From assembly GCF_014205795.1 (NCBI RefSeq), contig NZ_JACHCN010000003.1, positions 11,198 through 35,197 on the forward strand: 24,000 nucleotides of DNA, read 5' to 3'. The notes below the pieces were generated by a model. It was not told the DNA's origin and did not search any database. It was given only the letters and a program-made list of their open reading frames with translations. The position numbers were made by a program, and so were the translations under genes. This DNA comes from Rhodanobacter sp. MP7CTX1 (GTDB lineage Bacteria; Pseudomonadota; Gammaproteobacteria; Xanthomonadales; Rhodanobacteraceae). Of the stretch, positions 4,606 to 22,825 are shown piece by piece. Position 1 is the first letter of the stretch. Every line of letters begins with the position of its first letter.

Positions 4606-4808
4606 GTGGACCTCCGATAGCTTGGGCCGCAACGCGGCCTTTGAGATTGACGACAACAAAGCTTGGTAAACGGAACCGGGCTGTGAAACGTCAACGAGAC
4701 CAGGGTGGCGTGCAACCCGTACTCGCTACGCCGCATCTCTTGGCGCCGGGTCGGCCGTGACGATCGGGCGGGCATGGACGGCGCTTGGCTGCCCATGCCC
4801 GCCCCACT

Positions 4809-5035
4809 TTACTCCGAGATCAGATGCGTGGCATGGGTGACGGTCCCACCGGCGCGCAGGTTTGCAGCGACGAACGCGGTTTCGGCATGCTCCACTTTGG
4901 TGGCCCGGCCTTAAACGCCTCCCCCCTGTGGGTTTCGATGCAATAGGGGCACTGCGTGGTCAGCGCCACCGCCATCATCTCCACTTCTTCGGGATCGCGC
5001 CGTCGCCGGGAGATCTCTGTTTTTGCCTGGATCAA
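4809..5035 (-). pseudogene. carboxymuconolactone decarboxylase/AhpD-like gene, N-terminally truncated and frameshifted
   Basis: One frame carries the CxxC core motif TTQCPYCIETH. The expected C-terminus ATKVEHAETAFVAANLRAGGTVTHATHLISE* continues in a different frame, switching near 4905-4915. The N-terminal ~40+ residues are missing at the composition break near 5040. Confidence 0.62.
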
Positions 5036-5262
5036 GTTTAAGGGGAGTCGACAGGGCGAGGAGGCCTACTCGTTTTCGCGGAAGCAAGGGCGTGCCACAA
5101 TCGTTAGTGGCTCTGTATACGTCTCCTGTAATCACTATGGAGTTACTTCGCTAAAGTTTCTGAACTGTCTGCCGATCCATGTGTGAAGGTAAATGGAGTG
5201 GACATGTCAAAGGTATTTGAGGGCCATGTCGCTCGAGTTTCGCCCTGTTTCGGATCAATCTG

Positions 5263-5928: not shown

Positions 5929-7041
5929 TTGCCCAACTTTGACTACATTGAATCGGTGGACCTTCGCAACTCGCTGCAAGGCGATTACGAGGAAATGCAA
6001 AAAGCCGCCAAGGTGGGAGCTTGGAAGAGCGCCCAGGTCATGGCTGGTAGCATCGTCGAATGCTTACTTGTCGATTATCTGCTTTCGAAGCCCGACGGGC
6101 CGCCCGGAAAGAATCCCCTAAAAATGGACCTCGCCGAAGCCATTGCTGCTTGCAAGGAGGATGGCGCAATTTCCGACCGAACGGCGGATCTGTGCGCTGT
6201 CGTCCGGTCATATAGAAACCTGATCCACCCAGGCCGAATGATTCGACTCGAAGAGAAGGCGCCAAACCGCGCGTCCGGTGAAATCGCGGTTGCACTGATC
6301 GAGCTGATCGTTGACGACATCGCGCAAACCAGAAGAGACACGGTAGGTCTGACTGCTGAGCAGATTCTCCAGAAGATCGAGAAAGATTTCCAAATTCAGT
6401 CGATATTGAGGCACCTTCTTGACGAAGTGCGGGAGGCTCAGCGCGTCAGACTTCTCACTGACCTTCTCCCCAAAGCACATCGGGCCCATCTAGGGTATTT
6501 CGAAGGTCAAGAGGTAGCGAAACGCATCGAGGCAGCCTTTCGAACGATATTTGAGTCGCTTTCCGCTTCTCGGAAAACGGAAGTAGCTGATCGCTTCGCG
6601 CGTTTGCTGCGGGAAGAGGATGGTGAAGTTATTGCGACCTACCGAATGGCTTTCTTCAAGGGGTCCGACCTGGAGCACCTGAGTCCGCAACACCTCGCGA
6701 TCGTCAAGGAGCATATCTTCGGATCGATCGGTAACTTGCTCAGAGACGAAGACTTAGCTGTCCTCGCCGGGATCGGCAAATTTCTAGTACCTGAGGACGC
6801 ACGGCGCTGGTTCGGGCCAATCATGTTATCGATTCTGTCGCCGAGCATCGAACAACAATTGAAGAAGAAGGCAAGGATCATAGCGATTGAAACGATAGCC
6901 CAGTCTGACTATGCCTTCTGGCAGGCCGCTGACAGGGTGGCGGCATCATGGATCAAGGCATACGAAGAGCGTGGAAAGTCCGACACCGTGGATCTTATTC
7001 AAGGATTCAGGAGCGACCTTGATGATTCGATTCCCTTCTGA
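5929..7041 (+). CDS. HEPN-domain protein (N-terminal HEPN plus ~230-aa helical C-terminal region)
   Basis: 370 aa. RSYRNLIHPGR (R93/R96...H100, nt 6205-6228) follows a helix with a conserved Glu (SIVECLLVDYL), a typical HEPN layout. The start is uncertain: TTG 5929, GTG 5956 or ATG 5995. Confidence 0.62.
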   Translation: MPNFDYIESVDLRNSLQGDYEEMQKAAKVGAWKSAQVMAGSIVECLLVDYLLSKPDGPPGKNPLKMDLAEAIAACKEDGAISDRTADLCAVVRSYRNLIHPGRMIRLEEKAPNRASGEIAVALIELIVDDIAQTRRDTVGLTAEQILQKIEKDFQIQSILRHLLDEVREAQRVRLLTDLLPKAHRAHLGYFEGQEVAKRIEAAFRTIFESLSASRKTEVADRFARLLREEDGEVIATYRMAFFKGSDLEHLSPQHLAIVKEHIFGSIGNLLRDEDLAVLAGIGKFLVPEDARRWFGPIMLSILSPSIEQQLKKKARIIAIETIAQSDYAFWQAADRVAASWIKAYEERGKSDTVDLIQGFRSDLDDSIPF

Positions 7042-7505: not shown

Positions 7506-7790
7506 CCAGGAAACCAAAGCGTACTCGCTTATCTTCCGAAAATATCTCACTGGGCGAAGGCGCCTGTCAGATGGCTGGCTGGATACATCCCCAAACTAAG
7601 AGGATTGGTCGAGCCTCAAGGGGTGCCCAAGGTGAAGAAGAAAGCGGCGGGATCCTTGCGGGCCGTCGGCAAGCGCTTTGTGTTCTTTGTCGACGATATC
7701 GACCGATTGACACCCAATGAAGCCCTGGACTTTTCCGAGAGATCGAGGCTCTCGGTGATTTCCCAGAGGTGGTTTACACCCAACCTCAAA
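7506..7790 (+). pseudogene. KAP P-loop NTPase gene fragment (Walker B region only, frameshifted)
   Basis: GKRFVFFVDDIDRLTPNEALD matches DRRVLIIIDDIDRLAPDEALG of the intact KAP at 14001-16136. After a frame change, LFREIEALGDFPEVVY matches VFRLVKSIGRLPNVMY. No Walker A is present. The fragment ends where the HEPN gene 3' end (7786) abuts. Boundaries are approximate. Confidence 0.55.
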
Positions 7791-8600
7791 ACTGCACTCC
7801 AGTCTCCCATTTCATCCTTAAATCGATGTTGGCGGTGACCGTCGCGAGTTGAGTCGCTGCATGGACTGCTTGCATGCAGTCATGTGCGTGGCAGACGGTT
7901 GATCCAGGTTCATGCACCAATTGGTTACGGAGCTTGCGAAGTGTGTCCACCAGGTCGGCAATCTTGGCAGGAATCAAGCCGGTGTCACGGAGTTCATTGA
8001 CCATTTTGCTGACTGGAATGGGGCGGCCGTTTTTTTGTGACCGAGGGCCAAAGATGGCCTTGACGGAAGACTCGATAACGAACCATAGAAGTGTGAAGGA
8101 GACCTTGTAGTCGTTGTTCTTGTAGGCTGTCTTCGCTTTTGCAATGAACGATAGTCTCTTCACCAAATCGGCGTCTTTCGACACGAAAGTAAAACTATCT
8201 AGGGCGTCTACAATCACCGATCTCTTGACCACGCGCCAAAGCGCCAAGTCATCGAGTGTCTCATTGGTGGTCAAAGGCGTCTTCATTCCGCCGGCTATCC
8301 ATGCAGTCAGATCGCTTCGTGCGCGCAGAGGCGACCAGCGTCGAGGATATCTTCGATTAACCACCGAGCCGTCCAGGAAGCCGACTCTACAGGTATCAGA
8401 GATCGACACTGCATCGGCTAAGGCCTCCTGCGAAATCGTGCATTTGAGTGATTCAGACTCGATAAGAAGTAGCAAAGTGTTCGCGTAGTCCAAGTGCTCA
8501 TCCCACCACTGGACAGACTCGTTGAGCTTGTTGGGGTCGCCCATGTTAGGTATGGATGTCGCTAGATGGTCCATTCTCAGAAGAACTAGGCCATCGATAC

Positions 8601-8604
8601 ACAC
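8601..8604. repeat. target-site duplication ACAC (left copy)
   Basis: ACAC lies immediately outside the IS terminus, and an identical ACAC sits at 9794-9797. Confidence 0.75.
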
Positions 8605-8649: not shown

Positions 8650-9474
8650 TTACTGTAACTGTTTTGCATAGGCGGCAGGCGTCAGTCCGCCGAGTGCTTT
8701 CTTGGGTCGTTCCTCGTTGTATTCCCGACGCCAGCTTTCGATCTCGGTGCGTGCGTGTAACAGGCTGGGAAACCAGTGCTCGTTGAGGCATTCATCGCGA
8801 AAGCGGCCATTGAACGATTCGATATAAGCGTTCTGGTTGGGCTTGCCTGGTTCGATCAGGCGAAGCTGCACGCCACGTTCGTGTGCCCAGGTGACCATGG
8901 CCTTGCCGCAGAACTCTTTGCCGTTGTCGCTGCGAATGACTTTGGGCAGGCCGCGACTGAGCGCAAGACGATCCAGCACGCGCGCCAGGCCCATGCCGGA
9001 GATCGCCCGTTCAACCTCGATAACGACTGCCTCGTGGGTGGCATCGTCGACCACGGTTAGGCACTTGATGACACGAGCATCCGCCGTGCGATCAAACACG
9101 AAATCCATCGACCATACCTCGTTGGGTGCCGACGGCCGCAACAGCGGTTGCCGCTCAGCTACTGGCACTTTCTTCCGCTTGCGTCGGCGCACCTGCAGCT
9201 TCGCTTCCTGGTACAGACGCTCCACGCGTTTGTAGTTCACCAGCAGTCCCTCCTGTCGAAGCTTCAGGTAGATCATCCCCACGCCGTAGCGCTTGTGCCG
9301 CTGTGCCAGGGCCACGATCCGTTGTCGAAGATCCTCGTTACCATCCGGGCGCGTCTCGTAGCGATACGCACTGGCACTCATGCCCACGATCGCCAGCGAC
9401 CGGCGTTCGCTCAAGCCCTTGTCCACTATGTGCCGCACCAACTCGCGTCGAGCCGGTGCGCTCACCACTTTTTT
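8650..9474 (-). CDS. IS3-family transposase OrfB (DDE/rve catalytic domain), expressed as an OrfAB fusion by -1 frameshift
   Basis: The -1 frame from the slippery site reads [13 protein letters not shown]... and runs to the stop at 8650. It has an rve-type DDE triad. The upstream part of the 375-aa track ORF is a shadow of orfA. Confidence 0.88.
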
Positions 9475-9725
9475 CGCAACGCTTCCTTGATGACCTCGTT
9501 CTCGAGCACGTGCTCGGCGAGCAACTTCTTCAGCCGCGCGTTCTCCGTCTCCAGCTCCTTCAGGCGCTTGGCATCGGGCACGCTCATCCCGCCAAACTTG
9601 CTGCGCCACAGGTAGTACGAGGCCTCGCTGAAGCCGTGCCGGCGGCACAGCTCCTTCACCGGCATGCCGGCTTCCGCTTCGCGCAGGAAGCCGATGATCT
9701 GTTCTTCGGTAAACCGCTTCTTCAC
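9462..9725 (-). CDS. IS3-family transposase OrfA (HTH)
   Basis: (M)[45 protein letters not shown]... with a leucine-zipper-like tail. GTG start at 9725 is preceded by AAGGAG at 7 nt. The track start (TTG 9731) is 2 codons longer. Confidence 0.88.
9468..9474 (-). promoter_or_regulatory. programmed -1 ribosomal frameshift heptamer A AAA AAG
   Basis: The minus strand reads CGA AAA AAG TGG TGA in the orfA frame. This X XXY YYZ motif sits 2 codons before the orfA stop, the classic IS3-family arrangement. Confidence 0.8.
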
Positions 9726-9751
9726 GTCCAATCTCCTTGGGTTGAGGGATT

Positions 9752-9793
9752 GGACTCCAAATCGCTGTGCTACTCAAAACCGGGGGGACGTCG
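9752..9793. repeat. IS terminal inverted repeat (orfA-proximal end)
   Basis: The reverse complement reads CGACGTCCCCCCGGTTTTGAGTAGCACAGCGATTTGGAGTCC. Confidence 0.72.
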
Positions 9794-11652: not shown

Positions 11653-12216
11653 ATGACCGTCGCGTTCAAAATTCTTGGCCACCTTATCGACGAAGCAAAT
11701 GCCGCTCGCGCGCATTTTCAAGTGTGGTGGGCGTTGCGCAACCTGGCGTTGCCAGAGTTTTACGACACAATGAATGATTCCAAGTATGTCCAGTTCTTCC
11801 ATGCTTCGAATTCTGGCCATTACAAGCTGGTGTTCGTTGCTCTAGGTAAGATTTACGACAGTGACACCCGCGCCGCTGGCATAGCTGAGTTGAAGAGCGC
11901 CTTACGAGCCGAGGGGCGAGCTGACGTGGCGGATAAGGTCCAGCGGGACTTGGCCTCAATGAACGCGCATGTGCAACGCATCCTCGGGATTCGCAACCGC
12001 ACCGTGCTGCACAACGAACATGCTCTAGAGCGGGCTATTGTCTATGAGATGCATGGCATTCAGCCAGACGAAATATGGGAGTTGATTGACGCGACGTCAG
12101 AAGCCTTTAACGTAGCAGCTGAGGCTCTTGGGCACTCGTTCCGCGTCTCTGCAAGCAAATCTTACGAGGCGGCTACACTCGCTATGCTCGAACAATTGCA
12201 ACGTGGCGGCGCCTAA
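11653..12216 (+). CDS. HEPN-domain protein, AbiU2-like
   Basis: 187 aa. ILGIRNRTVLHNEH carries an RN...H motif (R114...H120, nt 11992-12012). The size and the helical N-terminal part (HFQVWWALRN, LVFVALGKIYD) resemble abortive-infection AbiU2-type HEPN proteins from memory. Confidence 0.6.
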   Translation: MTVAFKILGHLIDEANAARAHFQVWWALRNLALPEFYDTMNDSKYVQFFHASNSGHYKLVFVALGKIYDSDTRAAGIAELKSALRAEGRADVADKVQRDLASMNAHVQRILGIRNRTVLHNEHALERAIVYEMHGIQPDEIWELIDATSEAFNVAAEALGHSFRVSASKSYEAATLAMLEQLQRGGA

Positions 12217-12423: not shown

Positions 12424-13941
12424 TCAGCGTTGAGGGATTGGTGGCTGCCATCCAGTCACTGGTCCGACGTGAACGCTGATGCCGTATGCAAATTGATGCT
12501 GATGATATGGAGATCCGCGGTAGAGAATTGCGTCGACCTCTTGGGCGAGCTCTCGATAAAGCTCGTTGTCCGTCGCGCAGGAATACAAAAGCGCAATGCG
12601 CAGTTTTTGAGGCCCGCTTGAGGCGGCGACCTTGACATATAGCGAACGATCGTCTGGCTCACCAATCTCGACGCTCCAGCCTGCGTTTCTTAAAGGTCGC
12701 ACCAGATCGTCAATGCATTCCTGCTGAAGCACGGCTTTTCGTAGCAAGACGCCGTCGTCGGTAGGCATTGCAGGTACCAGCCTGCCATGCTGGCGATAAT
12801 TTTGTTGTTCGATTTGCTTTACTGCCATTTGGGCCTGCGCTTGCAACATCGCCTGCTGCCATAGAAGCCTGCCGTCCTCATCCATGCCAGGGAATATAAG
12901 CGGCACCTGATTGGACTCATCGTGCCATGACTCGATCACCCCAAGTGTTGCAATAGCCACCACAAGACGCGAAAAATTTGACGGCTTCTGCCAGTCCATT
13001 GATGCGCCGTGTGCGAACAGGTGTCGGTTTAACCAAGTGAGGCCGTCATACTCGCCGGTACGGCGAAAGAATGAATTCTCGAGCCACCGCCGGAAGGTTT
13101 GAAATACAAAGACTCGTTCGTCCTGCACGTAAAGGTAATCTTTTTCGCGGTACTCGGATGGAACCCACATGTCACCGAAGTGCGATCTGGCTGCCAACAT
13201 GCATGCCCGATCAATAATTTTGTCGACCTGCTCGAGAACAGGTTGCCCTGCGGCTTCGCTCGATATGCGACTGACCGCGCCTTCCATCACCGGAATCAGC
13301 GCCGCAATGCTGGAGGCCCTGTGCCCTGAATAGAACGCGAGATAGGCTTCCCGTGCGATCGGGGCAAATACCGAAAGCGATCGAGACTGAGGCAAGAATT
13401 GCGCGATGCACACTGCCTGAAACGGTAACGTGTAGATCGTTGATGTGTGATATTCAAACAATCGCAGCGCGTCCTCTTTGGAACGGTGCTCAATCGCCTG
13501 AAGTAGCTCATTGACCTTCCCCTGGGGAACCCAGAGAGGTGCAAACCACTCGACTTTTTCCCACAGGCTTGCGATCCGGTCCAAATGGACTTTGTGGGCG
13601 ACCCATTGCGGGTCACCAGTTGCCGCAACTTTCGGAAAGCAGGCTATTCCCTCGTCCGACTGCAGAACAACTGCGGGAGTGGGCCGGAAGATGCCAACAC
13701 TACGCTCCGAAACATCGAGCACTTTGATTTCCATCTGGTGGGCCCAGCCAGAGACCAGGTCCGCCTGAAGATCATTCAAGCTCGGCAGCGCCATAGCACG
13801 CCGCCAGAGTCCGGGAAATTTCGATCGACTCTCTTCGCCAGTCATTTCCGTCCAAATGCCGAGTTCGTCTTTCATGATCATTTGGACAGATTTGTCACTA
13901 TCAGCCCACCGTTCGCAGTGATCGACCAACCGGCCGCTCAC
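12424..13941 (-). CDS. large hypothetical protein with central HEPN-like region (Rx4H)
   Basis: 505 aa, 60 bp downstream of the KAP NTPase on the same strand. FAPIAREAYLAFYSGHRASSIAALIPVMEGAVSRI ... TWLNRHLFAHGAS (R306...H311, nt 13009-13026) ... NFSRLVVAIATLG. The GTG start at 13941 is uncertain. Confidence 0.7.
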   Translation of the reverse strand: MSGRLVDHCERWADSDKSVQMIMKDELGIWTEMTGEESRSKFPGLWRRAMALPSLNDLQADLVSGWAHQMEIKVLDVSERSVGIFRPTPAVVLQSDEGIACFPKVAATGDPQWVAHKVHLDRIASLWEKVEWFAPLWVPQGKVNELLQAIEHRSKEDALRLFEYHTSTIYTLPFQAVCIAQFLPQSRSLSVFAPIAREAYLAFYSGHRASSIAALIPVMEGAVSRISSEAAGQPVLEQVDKIIDRACMLAARSHFGDMWVPSEYREKDYLYVQDERVFVFQTFRRWLENSFFRRTGEYDGLTWLNRHLFAHGASMDWQKPSNFSRLVVAIATLGVIESWHDESNQVPLIFPGMDEDGRLLWQQAMLQAQAQMAVKQIEQQNYRQHGRLVPAMPTDDGVLLRKAVLQQECIDDLVRPLRNAGWSVEIGEPDDRSLYVKVAASSGPQKLRIALLYSCATDNELYRELAQEVDAILYRGSPYHQHQFAYGISVHVGPVTGWQPPIPQR

Positions 13942-14000: not shown

Positions 14001-16136
14001 TCAAAATCTCTCCGACCCCTTTCTCGCCCACGCCTCCAGGAATACCCGCACGGCCTCGAGGTCTTCTGCGGGCCGCCGCTGCTCGCGAGCGATACGCTCC
14101 AGTGCAGTTCGAAACTGGTCTGGATCAAACAAGTCAAAGTCGCTGCGAATATCGACACGCATCTCTCGGCGTGACACGCGATCACCGAGGCTGCCAAACC
14201 CACCCAGCCCTGTCGTCCTTGACTCACTAGTCAACGCGCGCGCCAGCCGCACCAGGACATCGTCGCGGCGCATTCTGTCGGTGAGCCAAGCCTTCATTTC
14301 GGCACCGTCGTCGCCGGCAAACTCCCTCCAGCGGTACAGGCAATACATGATGTCTCGCTGGAGTAGCAGCGAATCATCCTGGGCTGCCTGGCGTAGCGCG
14401 TTTAACGCGCGCTCTATCAGGGCGGGCAAAGCTTCCTTCGTCGTTAGTGCCGTCGCTAAATCTAACTCTCGTCCCTGCCGGGGATAGTGATCAGCGTAGG
14501 CCGAAGAAACAAAATCAACCAGCCAGCCCAATGTGGCGCGCTCGGTAGCGGCCAAGTAGAGCGCGGACTTTTCCTCGAGCGTGAAGCGATCTTCTGTCAC
14601 GCGGCGAATGAGCCAATGTATACGCAGCGACGTCGTAGCCATCGCGAAACCACGCTCTCCGTCTTGCTCGCGATCAATCGCGTCGGCGATCTCGAAGATG
14701 GCCGAGAAGAACGCGGGCACCTTGTCTTTGGCGATTTGTCGCCCATGACTGGTCAGCTCGTCCAGCACCACCGGGACCATCGATTTAGCTTTGCTCCGAA
14801 GCTGTGTCGCTGCACGCAACAACCTCTCTTGAATGAACTCTTTGTCACCCGATCGATCCAGAAGCTCCCGGATCTCCTTACTGGGCAATGTGTCGTCGCT
14901 CAAGGACATCTTGAAATAGGTATCGAAATGCTTGGCCACGCACACGCGGCGTTCCAATTCCCAGCTTTCGCGAAACCCCGAGTATGTGACTTCCTCGAAC
15001 GCCGGGAACAGACGCTGCAGAGCAATTTGCAGCCCTTCAAGGCGCTCTTTCGGCATGCCGGCCAAGAACGGATCGAAGCGCGCCTTGTCCCTCGACCCAC
15101 CCCGACTGGCGCTGGTCACAATATCCCGGTGCTGCCGGATCGACGTGTAGAGCGAGGGCTCGTACAGGCGCAAGGTTTCTAAGGCGAGGTAGTCGGCGTG
15201 GCTGACGTTGTTGGCCACTGGCGGCCAGGTAACAGTGATCGCGTTGATCAAGCGAGTAACGTGCCGCGGCGTGGTGAGGTAGGGAACCACCACGTCATAG
15301 AACAAATTCATGAAACGCACCTGATGCTCTTCCTTAGGCGTACCGCACCGTTCCTGGAAGGCCGTCAGTAGCGCGTTGTGCAAATCGCTGGGCGTTGGCG
15401 AAGGAAGTTCGAAGCTGGCTTGGATGATCTTCTCGAGAAAGTGAGGGCCTTCAGAAGGAAAGCGCTCCTTGACCGCAGCATCGGCCAGCGCACGATCGAA
15501 CACCATCAGATACATAACGTTGGGCAAGCGACCGATGGACTTGACCAGCCGAAACACCCCCAACGCCTCGTCCGGGGCCAACCGGTCGATGTCATCGATG
15601 ATGATTAACACACGCCGGTCCTGCGCCTCGAGCGTCTTGGAGAGCTTGCGAAAGGTCTTTTCCAACGAGGGTTTGTCGGGGAAAAAGCGCTTGGCGAAGG
15701 CTGCCGAGCCCGCGGCCAAGGCACCCCAACCGCTGGTCGTAGCCAAGGCGATCGCACTGCCGAGTACCGGCCCGGCTTGAAGCACGTGGCGACCCATTTC
15801 CGGCACTAGGTCTTTGACCTTGTCACCCAAGGAGCTCTTCAGTGCGGAGTTCAGTTCTTGCAAAAACGCCAGGGCGATTGCTTCCTCGCCTCGGTACCAC
15901 CAACACTTAAAATCAAAGACCGACAAGGTGTCGTCCTTTCGCTCGAGCAGTTCTGCCCGAATCAAGTTGACGGCACTGCTCTTGCCCGAGCCCCACGGGC
16001 CGGTCACCGCAATGGTGCTCCCGACAGGTTTGGCAATGCCAAGCAAACTCGTCGCCAGAGCCTCGGCAAAGGCGTGGACTCCATAACAATCGTCTTCCCG
16101 ACGTTCAATTGGACTGTCGTTAAAGTACTGGGACAT
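14001..16136 (-). CDS. KAP-family P-loop NTPase
   Basis: 711 aa. Walker A is GPWGSGKS (nt 15978-16001). A Gly/Ala-rich hydrophobic insert (AGPVLGSAIALATTSGWGALAAGSAAF) separates the Walker motifs. Walker B is RVLIIIDDIDRLAPDEAL, followed by LMVFDR. RBS GGAGAAAGGG precedes the ATG at 16136. Confidence 0.92.
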   Translation of the reverse strand: MSQYFNDSPIERREDDCYGVHAFAEALATSLLGIAKPVGSTIAVTGPWGSGKSSAVNLIRAELLERKDDTLSVFDFKCWWYRGEEAIALAFLQELNSALKSSLGDKVKDLVPEMGRHVLQAGPVLGSAIALATTSGWGALAAGSAAFAKRFFPDKPSLEKTFRKLSKTLEAQDRRVLIIIDDIDRLAPDEALGVFRLVKSIGRLPNVMYLMVFDRALADAAVKERFPSEGPHFLEKIIQASFELPSPTPSDLHNALLTAFQERCGTPKEEHQVRFMNLFYDVVVPYLTTPRHVTRLINAITVTWPPVANNVSHADYLALETLRLYEPSLYTSIRQHRDIVTSASRGGSRDKARFDPFLAGMPKERLEGLQIALQRLFPAFEEVTYSGFRESWELERRVCVAKHFDTYFKMSLSDDTLPSKEIRELLDRSGDKEFIQERLLRAATQLRSKAKSMVPVVLDELTSHGRQIAKDKVPAFFSAIFEIADAIDREQDGERGFAMATTSLRIHWLIRRVTEDRFTLEEKSALYLAATERATLGWLVDFVSSAYADHYPRQGRELDLATALTTKEALPALIERALNALRQAAQDDSLLLQRDIMYCLYRWREFAGDDGAEMKAWLTDRMRRDDVLVRLARALTSESRTTGLGGFGSLGDRVSRREMRVDIRSDFDLFDPDQFRTALERIAREQRRPAEDLEAVRVFLEAWARKGSERF

Positions 16137-16416: not shown

Positions 16417-17181
16417 TCATCGAGATGAGTTCGTCGGGGTTGAGGTGGCTCCATCACTGTGCTGCACTCTGGACGTTGCCCACACTACCGATCCTATCGG
16501 TACGGTTACTACTTCCTCATGGGAGAAAAGGGCACAGAAGCGATCGGAGCATTGCATGATCCGATATGAGTGAAGCACTCCGTCAGGAGACGTGACCACG
16601 ATCGCCGGCGCATTGGGAAACCCTCGCGCGAAGTCTTCCGCAGCCGTTGCAGCTCCTACGTGCAGGAAAGGTGCCACAAGGAGTAGGAGCGTGGCGCCAA
16701 TTACAAGGCACAGGGTGTAGAGCATATAGGCGCCGAAGAAGGCGCTGAAGACCCAAAGGGCTGCCAGCTTTACCGCAGGGTGCAGCGAAAGCGACCGAGT
16801 ACCTTGATGCGATCGTGAGCTACGCCAGCGCTCGGCAAGCTGGCGAAGGTAATAAGCGCCGACAGCCAATACCACGATTGAAATAGCGGGCACCAGAGTG
16901 GTGGCCGCCCAGTGCATTTTGAAGGTGTCACTGATGGCCGTAAAGACCCTGGTTGCCCCTCCCATCCAGGCGAGCGCTGCAAAGGTCAATGTATCGGGGA
17001 CATCGGATGGGAACATGGAAGAGGATAGGTGAAAGTAGCCAAGATAGCCTTCGTGAAAGGCTACCCCGTTCAAATAGAACACGGGTGTAAGGATTGCGAT
17101 TGCGGTAACTAGCCATTTGGCGATGGCATACCAAGCCATCTTTTCTTTCCCACCATCCGTGGCTGCAGATTCAGCGTCCAT
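16417..17181 (-). CDS. multi-pass membrane protein (4-5 TM) with a ~70-aa soluble C-terminal domain
   Basis: 254 aa. Hydrophobic segments: WLVTAIAILTPVFYL, LTFAALAWMGGA, LVPAISIVVLAVGAYYL, LAALWVFSAFFGAYMLYTLCLVIGATLLLLVAPFL. GAGGA RBS upstream of the ATG at 17181. Confidence 0.75.
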   Translation of the reverse strand: MDAESAATDGGKEKMAWYAIAKWLVTAIAILTPVFYLNGVAFHEGYLGYFHLSSSMFPSDVPDTLTFAALAWMGGATRVFTAISDTFKMHWAATTLVPAISIVVLAVGAYYLRQLAERWRSSRSHQGTRSLSLHPAVKLAALWVFSAFFGAYMLYTLCLVIGATLLLLVAPFLHVGAATAAEDFARGFPNAPAIVVTSPDGVLHSYRIMQCSDRFCALFSHEEVVTVPIGSVVWATSRVQHSDGATSTPTNSSR

Positions 17182-17230
17182 GTTGCATATCCTCTAAATT
17201 TTGACGAAGTTGCCATTAGGCTTTGGGTTG

Positions 17231-17264
17231 GTCTCGCGGAGCGAGACTGGGCGGTGGCCCGCCC
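17231..17264 (-). promoter_or_regulatory. two adjacent perfect GC-rich hairpins in an intergenic region
   Basis: GTCTCGC-GGA-GCGAGAC (17231-17247) and GGGCGG-TGGC-CCGCCC (17249-17264). No U-tract follows on either strand. Confidence 0.35.
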
Positions 17265-17322
17265 CCTGAATCATAAGCAGTTCCAGCCTACTTCGTCCGC
17301 GGGCCCCGATGAACGCCACGCC

Positions 17323-17766
17323 CTAGTAAATCCCATGTGCTGTTCGGTACAACAGGGACTCTACTAGACGGGCACCGCTATCGCTTACAGCTAAGGCCAT
17401 CGGAGTGATGGGAATTTGCTTGGGAATGTAGTTTGCGGGAGTGCGGAGCCACTTCAATGCGGCTTCCTCATTGCAAAACAGTTGCACAGCCTCGGCAAAG
17501 ACACGGGCCAGGCGCACGACACGATCGGATTCGTGTACGGCGAATCGGCTGTTAGAAGCGAGTCGGCGCCGCACTGTACTTTCAGGGACGAGAAGGCCGG
17601 GTGGCAACCTGAGCTTTGCCGTCACGCGCATGTATGTTCGGGCGCTGATACCACTGGAAACCGCACGGACGACATCGGCTTCAGAGTCAAGTTTCAGGTT
17701 AAGCAGCTCGCTCATCCGAGTGAAAATTGGCACCGTTTGGACTGACGGATTGGGAAGATCTCGCAT
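17323..17766 (-). CDS. Xre/MbcA/ParS-type antitoxin-like protein (DUF2384 toxin-binding domain)
   Basis: 147 aa. ESDRVVRLARVFAEAVQLFCNEEAALKWLRTPANYIPKQIPITPMALAVSDSGARLVESLLYRTAHGIY matches the conserved C-terminal domain of RES-associated antitoxins. GAGGAGG lies 7 nt upstream of the ATG. Confidence 0.82.
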   Translation of the reverse strand: MRDLPNPSVQTVPIFTRMSELLNLKLDSEADVVRAVSSGISARTYMRVTAKLRLPPGLLVPESTVRRRLASNSRFAVHESDRVVRLARVFAEAVQLFCNEEAALKWLRTPANYIPKQIPITPMALAVSDSGARLVESLLYRTAHGIY

Positions 17767-17853
17767 GACGTGTCCTCCTCATTGTTCGGTCATCGGTCTT
17801 CTTGAAGGTATCTGCGTTGACGGGGTTGACCCCATTAGGGCGGCTGAATTCGG

Positions 17854-18597
17854 TCACGTCGAAGCGGGACGTCTGTAAAACGGTTCGAGTTGCAGGCCGG
17901 ATATTCCCGCACGATGGGACGGCTCTTGGGGAAGGAAGCAAACTTGAAACATGTTCGAGGTAAGGCCTGCGTCACATGCGATTCGAATGAGTGCGTCCTC
18001 TAGTACAGCCTCGTGCGCCGCATTTACTGCGAGAACAATCTGCGGCGGCACGTCACGATTGGGGTGATGCAATTCGTACATGTAGGCCTCATCAATGTAA
18101 CCGGTGGACACAAACCAGGACGCCAAGGCGTAGGCAACTGGGTAGAGGCTATCGTCAGGCAATCGGAACACCCACGGACTGTCATGCGACGGAAGGCTCC
18201 CGAATTCCGGGTCGGCTGCAGCAAGAGCCTGCAATCGTTTGTACGCGAAATCGCTTATCTCATATTTGACGGGCGAGAGCGGATTGATCACAAAGCGCCG
18301 CTTGTTTGTGCTCAATAACAAACGAAGCATGTGCACCCGGACATAGGTCGCTGGGGAAGGTAAGGCTGGCGGTCCACGAGATGTCGAAGTGAAGAGGGGA
18401 ACAACATGCCGACCATCGGTATACCCCCACTCGACCAGATTGTGTCTGGGGTCTGCCTCGCCTGGACCGGGTGGGCATCTGAGTATGGCAACGATGGTGC
18501 TCGTCGACAGCTGGTCGAGGAAATCCAACTCACCATTCTCACTTAAAAATCCAGCATCTATCTGTTCGCCCAATGGGTCATGGTGCTCATCTGACAT
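17854..18597 (-). CDS. SseB-family protein
   Basis: 247 aa. WGYTDGRHVVPLFTS...FVINPLSP...E parallels E. coli SseB (W..DG..VIPFFTS...). The C-terminal ISGLQLEPFYRRP parallels HIAPFYERR. AGGAG RBS lies 6 nt upstream of the ATG at 18597. Confidence 0.68.
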   Translation of the reverse strand: MSDEHHDPLGEQIDAGFLSENGELDFLDQLSTSTIVAILRCPPGPGEADPRHNLVEWGYTDGRHVVPLFTSTSRGPPALPSPATYVRVHMLRLLLSTNKRRFVINPLSPVKYEISDFAYKRLQALAAADPEFGSLPSHDSPWVFRLPDDSLYPVAYALASWFVSTGYIDEAYMYELHHPNRDVPPQIVLAVNAAHEAVLEDALIRIACDAGLTSNMFQVCFLPQEPSHRAGISGLQLEPFYRRPAST

Positions 18598-18916: not shown

Positions 18917-18930
18917 GAGAGGCGTTGGTC

Positions 18931-19197
18931 ATGGGCGATAACCCCCAATCCCGAGTGGACCTTGAGCTGTACCTGCCCAGGACACCGGTTATAAGCGGCG
19001 CAGAGACTGCCCGCATCATGGGGTTTTCCACTACCGAAGCCCTTTACAAGGCACGGCAAGCCGGACGGCTGCCGATCGACCTGTTTCGCTTACCTGGACG
19101 ACGAGGCTGGTTTGCGGCTACTCCCGCTGTGAGAGAGTGGTTGCACGGAGTCATGTCCGAAGGGGGCGTCGGTACCAACCCAGGAGACAGGAGATGA
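18931..19197 (+). CDS. AlpA/excisionase-type helix-turn-helix DNA-binding protein
   Basis: 88 aa. VISGAETARIMGFSTTEALYKARQAGRLPIDLFRLPGRRGWFATPAVREWL fits the HTH_17/excisionase pattern. ATG 18931 preferred over the track TTG at 18925. Confidence 0.68.
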   Translation: MGDNPQSRVDLELYLPRTPVISGAETARIMGFSTTEALYKARQAGRLPIDLFRLPGRRGWFAATPAVREWLHGVMSEGGVGTNPGDRR

Positions 19198-19340
19198 CTA
19201 TGAGCGAATAGCCCACTTGGCGGGCTATAAAAGTTCGAGCCCCGCGTGGCAAGACGCAGGGCTCGGATACGAAGGCGAAGCTTTTGAGAATCGCGCTTCT
19301 CCTTCCTTATAGTGCCGCCCCCAGAGCACGTCAAGCGATT

Positions 19341-19357
19341 TCACCGCATAGCGGTGA
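19341..19357. promoter_or_regulatory. perfect inverted repeat TCACCGC-ATA-GCGGTGA upstream of the transposase gene
   Basis: 7-bp arms and a 3-nt spacer, 83 bp upstream of the ATG at 19440. Possible operator. Confidence 0.35.
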
Positions 19358-19439
19358 TGAGTTGATCCCGCGTGTTCGGATTTCCGGCGACCCTGCCAGG
19401 CCGTCTAGGTCCTTGCGCGCCCAGCGAGGAGGCACACCC

Positions 19440-21842
19440 ATGTTTAGTGATGCTCAGCGAAGCCTTTACTACCAAGCACGAGGTCTACATTCCACCGCCC
19501 TGCGCGAAGTCGAGGAGATGAGGGTGAACAGCCCGGCGCGAGAACCCAGTCAACGTGGCCTCACGAACACCATTGTCGACTTCCACTCAACGATGAGCGA
19601 CCGGCGGTGGTTGTTGGAGAGCTATACCGGCGAATTTCTCTTCGCGCTCTATCTAGAGGTGTTCAGTGGCTGCGACGAGTACTACGCTCAGGTGCGGCCG
19701 AAGAACGTGGTTCGCAATAGGCGGACGAGCTCGCTCACCGTCGACTTCATGGTGTTTGATCGGGCGGGAATCCGGCTCGTTGAAGTAAAGCCGCAAAGCC
19801 GACTGGAAGCGCTGGGTACTTCGAACCCCGAAGAGTGGGTATGCCACGCGGGGCGCTGGACGAGGCCGCCGGTGGAAGCGTGGGCAAGCGATCGAGGTCT
19901 GACCTACACCATCTGGTCCCCACCGGAACCTCACGGCATTTGTCAGGTAAACCTACTGTCTCTTTACGGAGTGGTGGCCGATACAGCGGCTCGAGAAGCC
20001 GAAATGAAGTGCGTTCGGCGCTTACGCAGGTTATTGCAGAAAGGCCCCCTAACCATATGCGACGCACTCGATAGGGTCTCTGGCCTCTCTGGAGTGCACG
20101 TACTCGCTGCGCTGGCAAAGGGATACATCTTCGGTCCTTTGCAGTCGGTTCCTCTCGACGAGGCTGGCCGCTTCACGCTTTTCGGCGTCAAAGCGCAGGC
20201 GGTCGAGTGCGATGAGCGACTGCTGAGTCAGCTGAAGGCGCATGTCAGCCAGCCCAACGTCGGCTCGAAGCTTATGCTGGCGAGCCCCAAGGACTACGCC
20301 AGCGCCCAACTTCGCCTAGCAAAGGTGAATCGAATCTTGGCGGGTGAGGTGCCCGCGACTCGACGATATGCTCCTTTGGTCCGCATCGTGTGCCAAGCGC
20401 GATCAGACGGACAGAGCGAGCTCGAAGTCTGCCTGACGCGCTACGCGAACTCGGGTCGACGCATAGGTCAGTTGACGGGCGATCAAGAGCGCGAAATGGC
20501 CGCGGCAATTGACGCGTATCGGAAGAATCCTGATATTCGCAACAAGCTCCAAGCCCATGACTATTTGGTAAAAGCCTGCGATCTTAAGGGCATTCGTCCT
20601 CCGGGCCGTGCGACTTTCAACGCTCGCCTTCGTCAGTCGAGCGACTTGGTGCGCGCTTATACCGAAGGAGGCTACAGGGGCTACCACGCCGCGGAGTGTG
20701 TATCAGACCCTGGTAATAGAACACTGCGTTGCAACGTGCCGGGCCTGATGGTGCACATCGACTCCACGAAGTTCGATTTGCGCTGTACTCCCGATTTCCT
20801 GGGTGCCTTGGAGTTCGACTGTCCGACACTCTACGTGGCCATGGATTCGGCTGCAGCTAAGCCGTTGGGCTACGCCGTATTGTTTGGTCCGGCGTGCCGC
20901 AACGCGTTAGCTGTGCTCATTCGCGACATCTTTCACAGGCAAGGTTTTTTGCCTCGTTACTGGATCGCTGATGGTGGCGCGGAATATGTCGGCCCCTGGT
21001 TTGCAGAAGCGTGTTCGTTTTTTGGCGCTACCCGCATACAGCCACCTCCGGGTACTCCCCGCAGGAACTCGCTTGCAGAAAACGCCCTAGGTCGAATCAA
21101 CGCCGAACTCGCGCATCGCTTCTTGGGTAGCACCGCGCCGGATCAAAAGGGACGCTCGGTCACTTCACGCCAAAAGAGCTACGCCACAGCCTGCCATCGT
21201 TACTCGACGATCGCAGAACACCTTGAGAAATATCTCTTCGAAGATGTCCCCGAGACACCACTGTTGTCTACGCGGTTCAGCCCTCAGGAAAGGAACGATG
21301 AGCTTACCGCCCTCTATGGCAATGCTGGTGCAGTAAGGATTCGGAATCTGGATGAGTTCCTGATCGTAACCTCGGTTCCTCTCGGTCGAGGAGTCACCGC
21401 CGATCCTCGTCGTGGGATCCGTTATCTCCAACGAACCTACGCCAGCGCTGACCTCATGCAACTCCTTCGCTTTCATAAGCCGATCGACATACGGTTGGAT
21501 TGTGTGGATCCGCACCGAATGTACGTGCGATTTCCATCGAAGTGGGTGCTCGCAATGACCAGCCAAAGCTTGCAAACCGGTGGTAGGGATACCGCGACCA
21601 AACTTTTCGAATCCATCATGGATAGCAAGCTGAGAAGCGAAGGGGCGCAGAAACGCGACGAACTTCGGAGAAAACGCGCAGAGCGCATTGCCGAAGCAAA
21701 CCTAGCAGCCAAGACGGCGGACCACCTCACATACATGCTTAAGCCTGCGAAAGATGCGCCACCGAAGACTAAGAAAACACGCATCTGGAGTGATCTCAAA
21801 AGCCCAATTGCCCCCTTCACCACCGGACAGGGTGACCTATGA
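19440..21842 (+). CDS. fused TnsA-like endonuclease / TnsB(TniA)-like DDE transposase
   Basis: 800 aa from ATG 19440, with GAGGAGG 7 nt upstream. The N-terminal part, LESYTGEF...LTVDFMVFDRAGIRLVEVKPQ, has the E/D/K pattern of the TnsA restriction-endonuclease-like fold. The C-terminal part has an rve-type triad: HIDSTKFD (D, nt 20760-20762), WIADGGAEYVG and NSLAENALGR. It also has the Mu/TnsB-type motif RRGIRYLQRTYAS. Confidence 0.82.
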   Translation: MFSDAQRSLYYQARGLHSTALREVEEMRVNSPAREPSQRGLTNTIVDFHSTMSDRRWLLESYTGEFLFALYLEVFSGCDEYYAQVRPKNVVRNRRTSSLTVDFMVFDRAGIRLVEVKPQSRLEALGTSNPEEWVCHAGRWTRPPVEAWASDRGLTYTIWSPPEPHGICQVNLLSLYGVVADTAAREAEMKCVRRLRRLLQKGPLTICDALDRVSGLSGVHVLAALAKGYIFGPLQSVPLDEAGRFTLFGVKAQAVECDERLLSQLKAHVSQPNVGSKLMLASPKDYASAQLRLAKVNRILAGEVPATRRYAPLVRIVCQARSDGQSELEVCLTRYANSGRRIGQLTGDQEREMAAAIDAYRKNPDIRNKLQAHDYLVKACDLKGIRPPGRATFNARLRQSSDLVRAYTEGGYRGYHAAECVSDPGNRTLRCNVPGLMVHIDSTKFDLRCTPDFLGALEFDCPTLYVAMDSAAAKPLGYAVLFGPACRNALAVLIRDIFHRQGFLPRYWIADGGAEYVGPWFAEACSFFGATRIQPPPGTPRRNSLAENALGRINAELAHRFLGSTAPDQKGRSVTSRQKSYATACHRYSTIAEHLEKYLFEDVPETPLLSTRFSPQERNDELTALYGNAGAVRIRNLDEFLIVTSVPLGRGVTADPRRGIRYLQRTYASADLMQLLRFHKPIDIRLDCVDPHRMYVRFPSKWVLAMTSQSLQTGGRDTATKLFESIMDSKLRSEGAQKRDELRRKRAERIAEANLAAKTADHLTYMLKPAKDAPPKTKKTRIWSDLKSPIAPFTTGQGDL

Positions 21843-22825
21843 ACCGCCAGCCTATTATTCCCCATCCTGCCTTTGTCCGAGCGCGGGACGCCTTAGTGCG
21901 GGCCCTGGACACGGACCAGCGCGGGCAAATTATCTTTGTCATCGGTCTGTCGGGATCGGGCAAGTCTGAAATTCGCTATGAGGCGATGCAGGCGTTTGCC
22001 GGAGCGCTGGATCAGTGGCCAGACGGTCAGATGCCCGCGATTGCGCTGCGAGCAGCGCCGACTGATCGATCCCGCTTTAGTCCGAAGGAGTTTATGACTC
22101 GCTTTTACCTTGAACTGCATGAACCCGATCTTCGCTGGCTCACTGGACGAAATGTGATCAACGATCCGGATTTGGTGCATCGCAGGGCGGACGCTCGCCT
22201 GTCAGATGCATTTTGGATCGATATGCGGCGTCGCACGACCGAGCACCAGCTGCGTACTTATGTGGAGCGCATGATTCCTGCCCGAGGTGTACGAGGCGTC
22301 TTTGTTGAGGAGGCCGCCTCGCTTACCTACACGCATACGTCAAAGGATCCTGAAAATCACATGGTGAACTACATGTGTCTAGCCGAAGAGATTGGCATCA
22401 CTTTGGTGCTGTTCGGCGTTCCTCGTGCAGCGAAACTCTGGGAGGGAAACGCGGAGATCCTTCGGCGCTCAAGATTTGTTTATGTTGAGCGCTATCGCTT
22501 GAAAAATGCGGAAGATTGCGTGAATTTTGAACGATTGGCTGTGAGCCTCGCTCAGCGCTTTACCTTCTCTCGTCGGAACCTTCTACGTCGAAACTTCGAC
22601 CTTGCCTACGTGTCGAGCGCTGGAGTTTGCGGCGAGCTGAAGAGCTACCTGTTGCGCGCCGACGACTTGCGCGCGAGCGATGGCGCGGAATCCATCACTC
22701 TGGTCCATCTTGAAGGGGCCGTCCAGCCAGAGGCCGTGCTGAAGACGCTTCACGCGGACGCGGTAGAGTTTGATGTTCTCCGAACGCCGGCGAATTCGAG
22801 CACCATAAAGAGGATTCTCAAATGA
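21839..22825 (+). CDS. TniB/TnsC-like AAA+ ATPase
   Basis: 328 aa. Walker A GLSGSGKS (nt 21944-21967) and a Walker B-like GVFVEEA. ATGA overlap with the upstream transposase stop. Confidence 0.78.
   Translation: MNRQPIIPHPAFVRARDALVRALDTDQRGQIIFVIGLSGSGKSEIRYEAMQAFAGALDQWPDGQMPAIALRAAPTDRSRFSPKEFMTRFYLELHEPDLRWLTGRNVINDPDLVHRRADARLSDAFWIDMRRRTTEHQLRTYVERMIPARGVRGVFVEEAASLTYTHTSKDPENHMVNYMCLAEEIGITLVLFGVPRAAKLWEGNAEILRRSRFVYVERYRLKNAEDCVNFERLAVSLAQRFTFSRRNLLRRNFDLAYVSSAGVCGELKSYLLRADDLRASDGAESITLVHLEGAVQPEAVLKTLHADAVEFDVLRTPANSSTIKRILK

Follow-up and report, generated by a model that had tools for sequence, protein, structure and literature searches.

An antitoxin gene of the Xre/ParS/MbcA type (DUF2384) in Rhodanobacter sp. 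MP7CTX1 lies between a gene for an SseB-like protein and a gene for a multi-spanning membrane protein, with no gene for a RES toxin downstream of it. This raises the question of whether the three genes form a dedicated system, in which the antitoxin has acquired a new partner, or whether the antitoxin stands alone among unrelated neighbours. We analysed the surrounding 24,000 nucleotides of DNA (the window) and consider the second answer rather more probable: the three genes would be island neighbours, the antitoxin belonging to a stand-alone RES-less lineage that travels with Tn7-like transposons and the membrane protein being an independent cassette.

A preliminary description of the locus had reported three minus-strand open reading frames with strong ribosome-binding sites, and their coordinates, strand and lengths are exactly as claimed (Table 1). 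Shine-Dalgarno motifs (AGGAG, GAGGAGG and GAGGA for the SseB-like, antitoxin and membrane protein genes, respectively) are located 7-9 nt ahead of each ATG. The family labels given to the SseB-like and antitoxin proteins also hold, as both score above the Pfam cutoffs and the antitoxin additionally scores above the cutoff of TIGR02293.

Table 1. Features of the locus, with positions numbered from the first nucleotide of the window.
Feature	Position	Strand	Product or length	Basis
PifA-like KAP P-loop NTPase gene (abortive-infection defence protein)	14001-16136	-		PADLOC, Pfam
Membrane protein gene (uncharacterised family)	16417-17181	-	254 aa; three predicted TM helices	
Spacer with two adjacent perfect hairpins/palindromes	17182-17322	-	141 bp	
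Xre/ParS/MbcA-type antitoxin gene, RES-less (orphan)	17323-17766	-	147 aa	TIGR02293, PF09722
SseB-like protein gene	17854-18597	-	247 aa	ORF list and Pfam SseB N-terminal domain
Small putative DNA-binding (excisionase-like) protein gene	18925-19197	+		ORF; HTH label read from sequence alone
TnsB-like DDE transposase gene	19284-21842	+		Weak rve-region matches (NCBIfam)
TniB/TnsC-like ATPase gene	21839-22825	+		Pfam AAA_22/TniB

The locus is a mosaic, low-GC island of defence genes and mobile elements, with a shift in GC content near position 5000. Its content includes PifA, HEPN_AbiU2 and DUF4145 proteins, an IS3 transposase and Gabija. The PifA-like protein matches the PADLOC model PDLC02361 (PifA) over residues 2-691 of 711 (E 2.1e-116) and Pfam KAP_NTPase (E 3.5e-46), and its gene is separated from the membrane protein gene by 280 bp. 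On the other side of the three genes is a Tn7-like operon, comprising a TnsB-type DDE transposase, a TnsC/TniB ATPase and TniQ (PF06527); the last of these is located beyond the window, where it is followed by Gabija (GajA and GajB), as seen in locus L001. With the rve-positive TnsA/B-like proteins encoded at loci L005 and L011, the transposase of the window shares 23% identity. The small gene upstream of the transposase is divergent from the SseB-like gene, and its product has no match in Pfam, NCBIfam, PADLOC or PHROGs. A repeat search of the window identified no convincing transposon end repeats enclosing the three genes, the far end lying outside the window, and no tRNA genes were detected in the window.

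The 147-aa protein is a genuine, full-length member of the Xre/ParS/MbcA antitoxin family. It scores 71.2 bits against the full-length NCBIfam model TIGR02293 (cutoff 57) and has the C-terminal toxin-binding domain PF09722 (Xre_MbcA_ParS_C; 27.2 bits against a cutoff of 24.5, residues 93-145), while the N-terminal Xre-like HTH domain PF20432, taken alone, reaches 22.7 bits and stays under its cutoff of 25.8. A profile of its clade aligns full-length with the solved Xre antitoxins 8GUG_B (5e-16) and 6GW6_B (1e-9). All 36 clade-invariant residues are kept in the protein, including the C-terminal DxGARL motif and the TA.G motif.

In all 15 of the examined loci that encode relatives of this antitoxin at 33-64% identity (about ten distinct sequence types), a RES gene starts no more than approximately 70 bp downstream; the nearest of these RES-paired relatives are 59-64% identical to the antitoxin of the window. 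Here, no RES gene lies immediately downstream, and tblastn searches with the RES partners of the closest homologs found neither a RES gene nor a remnant of one anywhere in the 24-kb window, spacer included (the best hit, E 0.18, is outside the window). Comparison with a RES profile using hhalign gave probabilities of 2.9% for the SseB-like protein and 0.06% for the membrane protein. The lack of a RES-like open reading frame in the preliminary description is therefore upheld by Pfam, by tblastn across the window and by profile-profile comparison of both neighbours. The cryptic RES or toxin domains that it proposed to look for in the 254-aa and 247-aa proteins did not emerge from Pfam, NCBIfam, PADLOC or PHROGs scans, from Foldseek comparison of AlphaFold2 models with the PDB, or from PDB sequence profiles.

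RES-less antitoxins are found in the window and at loci L017, L011/L012 and L045. In a phylogenetic tree the RES-less copies form a single subclade nested inside the RES-paired antitoxins, and the protein of the window is placed inside it. The lineage appears to have lost its adjacent RES toxin, the RES-less state extending throughout the subclade. Every RES-less copy with enough context adjoins TnsB/TniB/TniQ transposon genes, an association that rests on four or five RES-less contexts, several of them on short contigs and some related to one another. At L011/L012 the antitoxin gene lies directly after TnsAB-TniB-TniQ and is co-oriented with them. L045 and L011 share 83% DNA identity over the 3' end of tniQ and the antitoxin gene, and divergence begins 18 bp past the stop codon. 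At L044 a distant DUF2384-like gene is located beside a TnsA/B-like gene and a homologue of the small putative DNA-binding gene of the window (67% identical). Plasmid relatives of the antitoxin are distant matches only (approximately 30%). The RES-less lineage is under purifying selection, with dN/dS values of 0.18-0.20 for the antitoxin gene of the window and 0.17-0.20 across RES-less copies, which have diverged to 63-70% identity; between the L011 and L045 antitoxins dS is 0.53 and unsaturated.

The space where a RES gene would be expected is taken up by the 141-bp spacer, whose length and two perfect hairpins were verified as previously described. The first stem (GGGCGG-GCCA-CCGCCC) is at 17249-17264 and the second (GTCTCGC-TCC-GCGAGAC) at 17231-17247, and the spacer folds with -55 kcal/mol (z-score -2.6). 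No T-tract follows the hairpins, so no T-tract terminator is seen, and no Rfam family matches the spacer. One stem base pair varies symmetrically, as G-C, C-G and T-A in the window, L017 and L018. Homology to L018 begins at position 17287; the 3' 106 nt of the spacer travel with the membrane protein gene, and the palindromes accompany this gene at L018 even though the antitoxin is absent there. Distant members of the membrane protein family have no comparable hairpin upstream.

What might an antitoxin of this kind do? On the reading we favour, a lineage that would have lost its adjacent NAD+-targeting RES toxin persists as a stand-alone gene with a TnsB/TniB/TniQ transposon family. The 147-aa protein would most likely act in trans, neutralising RES toxins made elsewhere, whether these come from Xre-RES modules for addiction or defence, resident or newly arrived, or are delivered RES-domain toxins. 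The host or the element would thereby be protected, an anti-addiction or anti-defence outcome. The orphan antitoxin with an anti-defence or regulatory role was one of two alternatives offered in the preliminary description, and it is the one that the evidence favours.

In the regulatory variant, the Tn7-like element would have co-opted the protein for DNA binding, to regulate transcription of element genes or to help in target choice; it would no longer neutralise a toxin, and the palindromes would be its operators, controlling the membrane protein gene. We regard this as unlikely, though it accommodates several observations: the position of the gene straight after a co-oriented tniQ at L011/L012 and L045, its closeness, both in the window and at L044, to transposase genes and to the small gene for a putative DNA-binding protein, the N-terminal Xre-like HTH (below cutoff, as noted), and the perfect 16- and 17-bp palindromes at 17231-17264 with their symmetric substitutions between homologs. 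However, no conserved residue of the toxin-binding domain has been lost, and at L018 the palindromes accompany the membrane protein gene with no antitoxin present. Furthermore, the isolated Xre protein of Pseudomonas putida is a monomer and a weak repressor, whose strong binding to DNA depends on complex formation with RES (PMC12204516), a property more in keeping with toxin binding than with regulation by the protein alone. More generally, we tentatively suggest that the RES-less DUF2384 lineage could be a recurrent accessory gene of TnsA/B-TniB-TniQ transposons, acting as a portable antidote to RES NADases or as a DNA-binding factor in regulation or target choice. Under the same suggestion the gene may directly follow tniQ in some elements and, in others, be divergent from the transposase gene and the small gene upstream of it. 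Orphan antitoxins are already known, and a transposon-linked RES-less DUF2384 subclade is a modest novelty; none of the papers retrieved describes a link between Tn7-like transposons and an orphan lineage of DUF2384 antitoxins.

The membrane protein has a distribution of its own. It was initially described as having four to five transmembrane segments. That number is too high: the sequence shows three hydrophobic segments (at about residues 19-42, 89-113 and 136-181) plus one amphipathic helix, and the predicted topology has three transmembrane helices, with the N-terminus inside and the C-terminus outside. In the AlphaFold2 model of the protein (pLDDT 90) the C-terminus is a small SH3/Sm-like beta domain, with two conserved cysteines. 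The protein has no match in Pfam, NCBIfam, PADLOC or PHROGs, and its model has no fold match in the PDB at E<=1e-3 using Foldseek. An exhaustive HMMER search yielded a family of 122 cluster representatives, the most conserved motifs of which are predicted to lie outside the cytoplasm. A DUF2384, RES, SseB-like or PifA gene was found within 6 kb of the family member in none of eight genomic loci. In a P2-like prophage the gene occurs alone, on the opposite strand, between tail and baseplate genes, as a moron. T6SS effector loci are nearby in three of the eight genomes (VgrG-Tle1, a PAAR toxin and TssM), and at the VgrG-Tle1 locus the neighbours of the family member also include two DUF2931 proteins, whose position makes them candidates for immunity; in four Pseudomonas genomes the context is ordinary chromosome. 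At loci L018 and L019 the membrane protein gene is present together with the proximal spacer, but the antitoxin is missing. Plasmid and phage searches returned no relatives of the membrane protein or of the SseB-like protein. Because the family occurs alone as a moron and beside T6SS effector and candidate immunity genes, its gene neighbourhoods suggest that the 254-aa protein is less likely to be a toxin than an envelope protein with a protective role, of the immunity or exclusion type. In the window its gene would be an independent single-gene cassette with its own hairpin-bearing leader of approximately 105 nt.

The other alternative in the preliminary description was that the ParS-like protein controls a membrane-disrupting effector. 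The two would then make up a new pair of the toxin-antitoxin type, the DUF2384 protein keeping in check, by neutralisation or repression, a membrane protein that is disruptive when freed. We consider this improbable. The two genes do share strand and order, both are under purifying selection, their adjacency is retained at L017 together with the spacer, and the distant DUF2384-like gene at L044 is upstream of another multi-spanning membrane protein. However, L017 carries antitoxin, spacer and membrane protein gene in one continuous stretch of 85%-identical DNA, and the pair there is therefore not an independent co-occurrence. The 394-aa membrane protein at L044 was compared with the 254-aa protein and is not a homolog (hhalign 1%). 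The other RES-less antitoxins (L011/L012 and L045) have no such membrane partner, and true Xre-RES pairs are separated by 0-70 bp, against 141 bp with hairpins here. Members of the membrane family are encoded without a DUF2384 gene in eight genomes, in a close metagenomic copy (L018/L019) and in the P2-like prophage, where an unguarded toxin would be unexpected. The protein itself is large, its best-conserved motifs are on the predicted outer side, and it is homologous to no known family of membrane toxins or effectors and has no consistent neutralising partner.

The SseB-like protein fares no better as a partner. Its SseB N-terminal domain (PF07179; residues 25-115) scores 25.7 bits against a cutoff of 21, and it reaches 13.4 bits against the NCBIfam SseB equivalog NF008624 (cutoff 295), which places it outside E. 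coli SseB orthologs. The subfamily is rare and associated with mobile elements, with 12 homolog clusters among 5.8 billion proteins, and nine of 11 homologs have the same precomputed SseB domain. The AlphaFold2 model (pLDDT 87) has no significant fold match in the PDB using Foldseek, and dN/dS against the L002 homolog is 0.12. In five other loci with homologs, no DUF2384 gene adjoins the SseB-like gene; elsewhere the homologs usually follow ordinary Xre-type HTH regulators. The SseB-like gene is a separate gene of the island and not a partner of the antitoxin.

Two further explanations are very improbable. A single new multi-gene anti-phage system made up of all three genes, and perhaps also of the PifA-like NTPase downstream, would fit four co-oriented genes inside a defence island, but apart from the contiguous stretch at L017 no two of the families occur together elsewhere, L017 lacks PifA downstream of the membrane protein gene, the intergenic gaps are 141 and 280 bp, and PADLOC matches PifA alone. 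That the antitoxin gene is a functionless relic decaying after deletion of RES would fit the missing toxin and the non-coding stretch in its expected place, but the open reading frame is intact behind a strong Shine-Dalgarno motif with every invariant residue present, dN/dS among the diverged RES-less copies is low, the whole subclade is RES-less and no RES remnant is detectable.

For the original proposal the outcome is mostly negative. The attractive module of an antitoxin with a membrane effector most likely arose by chance in a mosaic island. If the RES-less subclade acts in trans, the transposon would be carrying an antidote to a widespread family of NAD+-depleting toxins, with implications for the ways in which mobile elements get past defence and addiction based on toxin-antitoxin systems. 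The membrane family (approximately 120 clusters), found in moron sites, near T6SS effectors and in this defence island, is a candidate envelope-protection protein.

Each component can be compared with a known system. The 247-aa protein is similar to E. coli SseB in length and in the N-terminal domain, but it is far below the equivalog score and belongs to a rare subfamily of mobile elements and defence islands. The 254-aa family resembles prophage morons and orphan immunity genes near T6SS in its lone P2-like site and its VgrG-Tle1, PAAR and TssM neighbourhoods, but differs from them in matching no known immunity or exclusion family and in the ordinary chromosomal context of its four Pseudomonas copies. 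With Xre-RES, ParST and MbcTA (TIGR02293, PF09722 plus PF20432; 6GW6, 8GUG) the 147-aa protein shares both domains and all clade-invariant residues, whereas the downstream position of RES is occupied by the spacer and an unrelated membrane protein gene. As a stand-alone antitoxin homolog under selection, carried inside or beside a mobile element of a defence island, the 147-aa protein also has a parallel in the orphan anti-addiction or anti-defence antitoxins of mobile elements described in the literature, such as the phage orphan antitoxin-like enzymes that counter DarTG1; the putative antidote described here differs from them by its link to Tn7-like transposons.

The three minus-strand ORFs lie exactly where the preliminary description had placed them, each preceded by its Shine-Dalgarno motif 7-9 nt before the start. 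The 147-aa protein is a full-length Xre/ParS/MbcA antitoxin (TIGR02293, 71.2 bits against a cutoff of 57; PF09722, 27.2 against 24.5), and its clade profile matches the solved antitoxins 8GUG_B (5e-16) and 6GW6_B (1e-9). The 247-aa protein scores just above the threshold of the Pfam SseB N-terminal domain (25.7 versus 21 bits) and far below that of the NCBIfam SseB equivalog (13 versus 295 bits). The initial SseB-like and DUF2384/Xre-type labels both hold. The reported absence of RES was also borne out, as neither a RES gene nor a remnant was found in the 24-kb window by Pfam scan or homology search. A cryptic RES domain in the neighbouring proteins was rejected, with hhalign probabilities of 2.9% for the SseB-like protein and 0.06% for the 254-aa membrane protein; neither has a significant fold match in the PDB (Foldseek for the whole membrane protein).

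Antitoxin homologs formed 47 clusters at E <= 1e-10 among 5.8 billion proteins, and their context was drawn from DNA around the closest homologs together with 17 metagenomic loci. A RES gene starts at most ~70 bp past the antitoxin stop in 15 of the 15 loci that carry homologs of 33-64% identity and have downstream DNA available (about ten distinct sequence types). The RES-less exceptions are the window itself; L017, a fragment with 85% DNA identity to window 17451-16414; L011/L012, where an antitoxin homolog (67% identical) directly follows TnsAB-TniB-TniQ; and locus L045, which matches L011 at 83% DNA identity from the tniQ 3' end through the antitoxin, loses this similarity 18 bp past the stop, and has no RES start within the next 130 bp. 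In a neighbour-joining tree, the window antitoxin clusters with homologs P0017, P0018, P0019 (from L011), P0020 (from L045) and P0025 as a single subclade nested inside the RES-paired antitoxins. All 36 clade-invariant residues are kept in the RES-less genes, including the C-terminal toxin-binding motifs, and their dN/dS is 0.17-0.20 (dS is unsaturated, at 0.53 for L011 versus L045). The RES-less subclade is therefore no relic: its toxin has been lost, yet the lineage is still maintained. Wherever the flanking sequence of a RES-less copy is long enough, Tn7-like transposition genes are found within 2 kb. A possible operator is the short inverted repeat GGGGT-CA-ACCCC (window 17822-17833) in the gap that separates the SseB-like gene from the antitoxin gene; a repeated GTCAAC follows it, and it precedes the antitoxin start by ~55 nt.

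Divergent from the SseB-like gene, and upstream of it, are genes for a 90-aa putative DNA-binding protein, a TnsB-like transposase and a TniB-like ATPase, followed on the longer contig by TniQ and a Gabija system. In L001, the continuation of the contig beyond the window's right end, Gabija occupies 1-2901 directly after TniQ (GajA, an OLD-like TOPRIM ATPase, and GajB, a UvrD helicase) and has the appearance of cargo carried by the Tn7-like element; a repeat search of the window did not find the ends of this element. At a further locus, L044, a distant DUF2384-like gene is divergent from two others, one for a homolog (67% identical) of the 90-aa protein and the other covering the N-terminus of a TnsA/B-like transposase.

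From position 1 to ~4700 the window carries housekeeping enzymes at a GC content of 60-64%, and from ~5000 onward GC is 53-59%; the shift at ~4700-5260 marks the left border of an island. Left of it are aldehyde dehydrogenase, enoyl-CoA hydratase and glyoxalase genes, and a 26-nt inverted repeat pair (3180-3205/4980-5005) flanks the glyoxalase region. On the other side, the membrane gene is followed after 280 bp by a full-length PifA-like gene; PifA is a type of phage-exclusion protein known from the F plasmid. The adjacent 505-aa ORF, without a match in Pfam, NCBIfam, PADLOC or PHROGs, could be a PifA partner or a separate defence gene, and the HEPN_AbiU2 and two DUF4145 proteins are candidates for further defence genes of the island. 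Two nested pairs of inverted repeats (9693-9793/10051-10151) just upstream of the IS3 transposase start could represent either an end of the IS or some regulatory structure. The GC drop, the PifA, AbiU2, DUF4145 and IS3 content, and the TnsB, TniB, TniQ and Gabija neighbours therefore place the three genes in a defence/mobile-element island adjoining a Tn7-like transposition module.

Features of the island segment of the window
Feature	Position	Strand	Details
DUF4145 protein	5929-7041	+	
DUF4145 protein	7786-8604	-	
IS3-family transposase	8650-9777	-	rve, rve_3, HTH_21
HEPN_AbiU2 protein	11653-12216	+	
505-aa ORF	12424-13941	-	~60 bp downstream of PifA-like gene
PifA-like KAP P-loop NTPase	14001-16136	-	full-length, PADLOC PifA E 2e-116
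Membrane-protein gene	17181-16417	-	254 aa; ORF, SD GAGGA
Xre/ParS/MbcA antitoxin gene	17766-17323	-	147 aa; ORF, SD GAGGAGG
SseB-like gene	18597-17854	-	247 aa; ORF, SD AGGAG

Scans of Pfam, NCBIfam, PADLOC and PHROGs gave no hit for the 254-aa protein. The protein is a membrane protein as first described, with three hydrophobic segments and one amphipathic helix in place of the proposed 4-5 transmembrane segments. A word-indexed search returned only two close relatives, and an exhaustive HMMER search a family of 122 cluster representatives, mostly of 240-260 aa. Conserved in the family are YLNGxAYHDGYL...SMFPLD past the first hydrophobic segment, PF..VG...A..D...F past the last, and a C-terminal YRxIxC....FCALY...VP with two nearly invariant cysteines. 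In a confident AlphaFold2 model (pLDDT 90) the protein has four long helices plus a small beta domain, to which we take the top sub-threshold Foldseek matches to correspond (small Sm/SH3-like barrels, E about 0.05-0.15, roughly 50-60 aligned columns). The family-wide charge distribution (net +4.5 for the 113-136 loop) suggests that this loop is cytoplasmic and that the C-terminal domain is outside, as are the motifs with the strongest conservation.

Within 6 kb of the membrane-family gene, none of eight genomes (one Rhodanobacter and seven Pseudomonas) has a DUF2384, RES, SseB-like, PifA or TnsB-like transposase gene. Three of the eight (L025, L026 and L027) carry it within 2-3 kb of a region for type VI secretion effectors. 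One such region has VgrG-Tle1 and, after it, two DUF2931 proteins; another encodes a PAAR-domain protein, with three small ORFs downstream and an HNH gene; and the third is a TssM locus that also encodes a 925-aa SH3/GH19-like protein. Four Pseudomonas genomes share a common, ordinary chromosomal context; in these (L021-L024) the gene follows an APH-type kinase and a formyltransferase-enoyl-CoA hydratase fusion whose two domains recall those of HoxX/HypX. Locus L002 has a comparable fusion protein (558 aa) ~4 kb from its SseB-like gene, among hydrogenase maturation genes, which is probably a coincidence. In IMG/VR the family occurs once, at L046 4893-5636 (UViG 2671180913), a P2-like prophage in which it stands by itself on the opposite strand, with tail gene S on one side and the baseplate genes on the other, a typical moron site.

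The 141-bp spacer upstream of the membrane gene does contain the two perfect hairpins described earlier (adjacent stems at 17249-17264 and 17231-17247); the spacer folds with a z-score of -2.6, no T-tract follows the hairpins, and no Rfam family matches. One pair of hairpin 1 is G-C, C-G and T-A in three sequences (window, L017 and L018), changes compatible with pairing in an RNA stem as well as with a symmetric palindrome bound by a protein. Loci L018/L019, close relatives, keep the membrane gene and the proximal 106 nt of spacer with both hairpins, but the sequence upstream differs and lacks the antitoxin, and in L017 the homology to the window stops at the membrane gene's stop, with no PifA downstream. 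The membrane gene thus behaves as an autonomous cassette that includes its leader.

The SseB-like family comprises only 12 clusters, and none of five other loci has a DUF2384 neighbour. An ordinary Xre-type HTH regulator is usually encoded one to three genes upstream, and small membrane proteins are sometimes present too. The gene's surroundings are mobile or defence contexts: a related TnsB-TniB-TniQ element adjoining a type I restriction system, an IS3 neighbourhood, DNA methylase islands, and a Lit-like peptidase U49 with an integrase; dN/dS against L002 is 0.12. The first of these contexts (L005/L006/L007; a distantly related element, transposase 23% identical) is arranged like the window, with an accessory operon running divergently next to the transposase gene; this operon encodes HTH (159 aa), 2-TM (148 aa) and, last, SseB-like (247 aa) proteins, and the type I restriction-modification system follows. 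A small conserved protein (43% identity over 54 aa) is encoded in two unrelated elements (L002 1090-1437 and L009 5209-5547), beside Xre-type HTH genes upstream of SseB-like genes.

The three-gene cluster is best explained by island mosaicism, as an orphan but functional antitoxin with two unrelated accessory genes. We propose that the antitoxin would neutralise RES toxins in trans, in an anti-addiction or anti-defence role serving the element. This is argued from the retained toxin-binding residues and from the weakness of isolated Pseudomonas putida Xre as a repressor: alone it is a monomer, and tight DNA binding requires RES (PMC12204516). RES domains are also present in secreted polymorphic toxins (PMC3482391). 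The main rival is that the RES-less protein is a DNA-binding factor for the transposon. The preliminary description had offered an orphan antitoxin, which the RES-less subclade, its kept residues and its dN/dS favour, or an antitoxin controlling a membrane-disrupting effector; this second pairing is unlikely because the membrane family occurs without DUF2384 in all eight genomes and alone in the P2-like prophage, other RES-less antitoxins lack the membrane gene, and the sole recurrence of the pair (L017) is not independent. Two points are worth following up, the membrane family without a library match and the transposon-linked RES-less DUF2384 subclade; the literature already describes orphan antitoxins broadly like this one.
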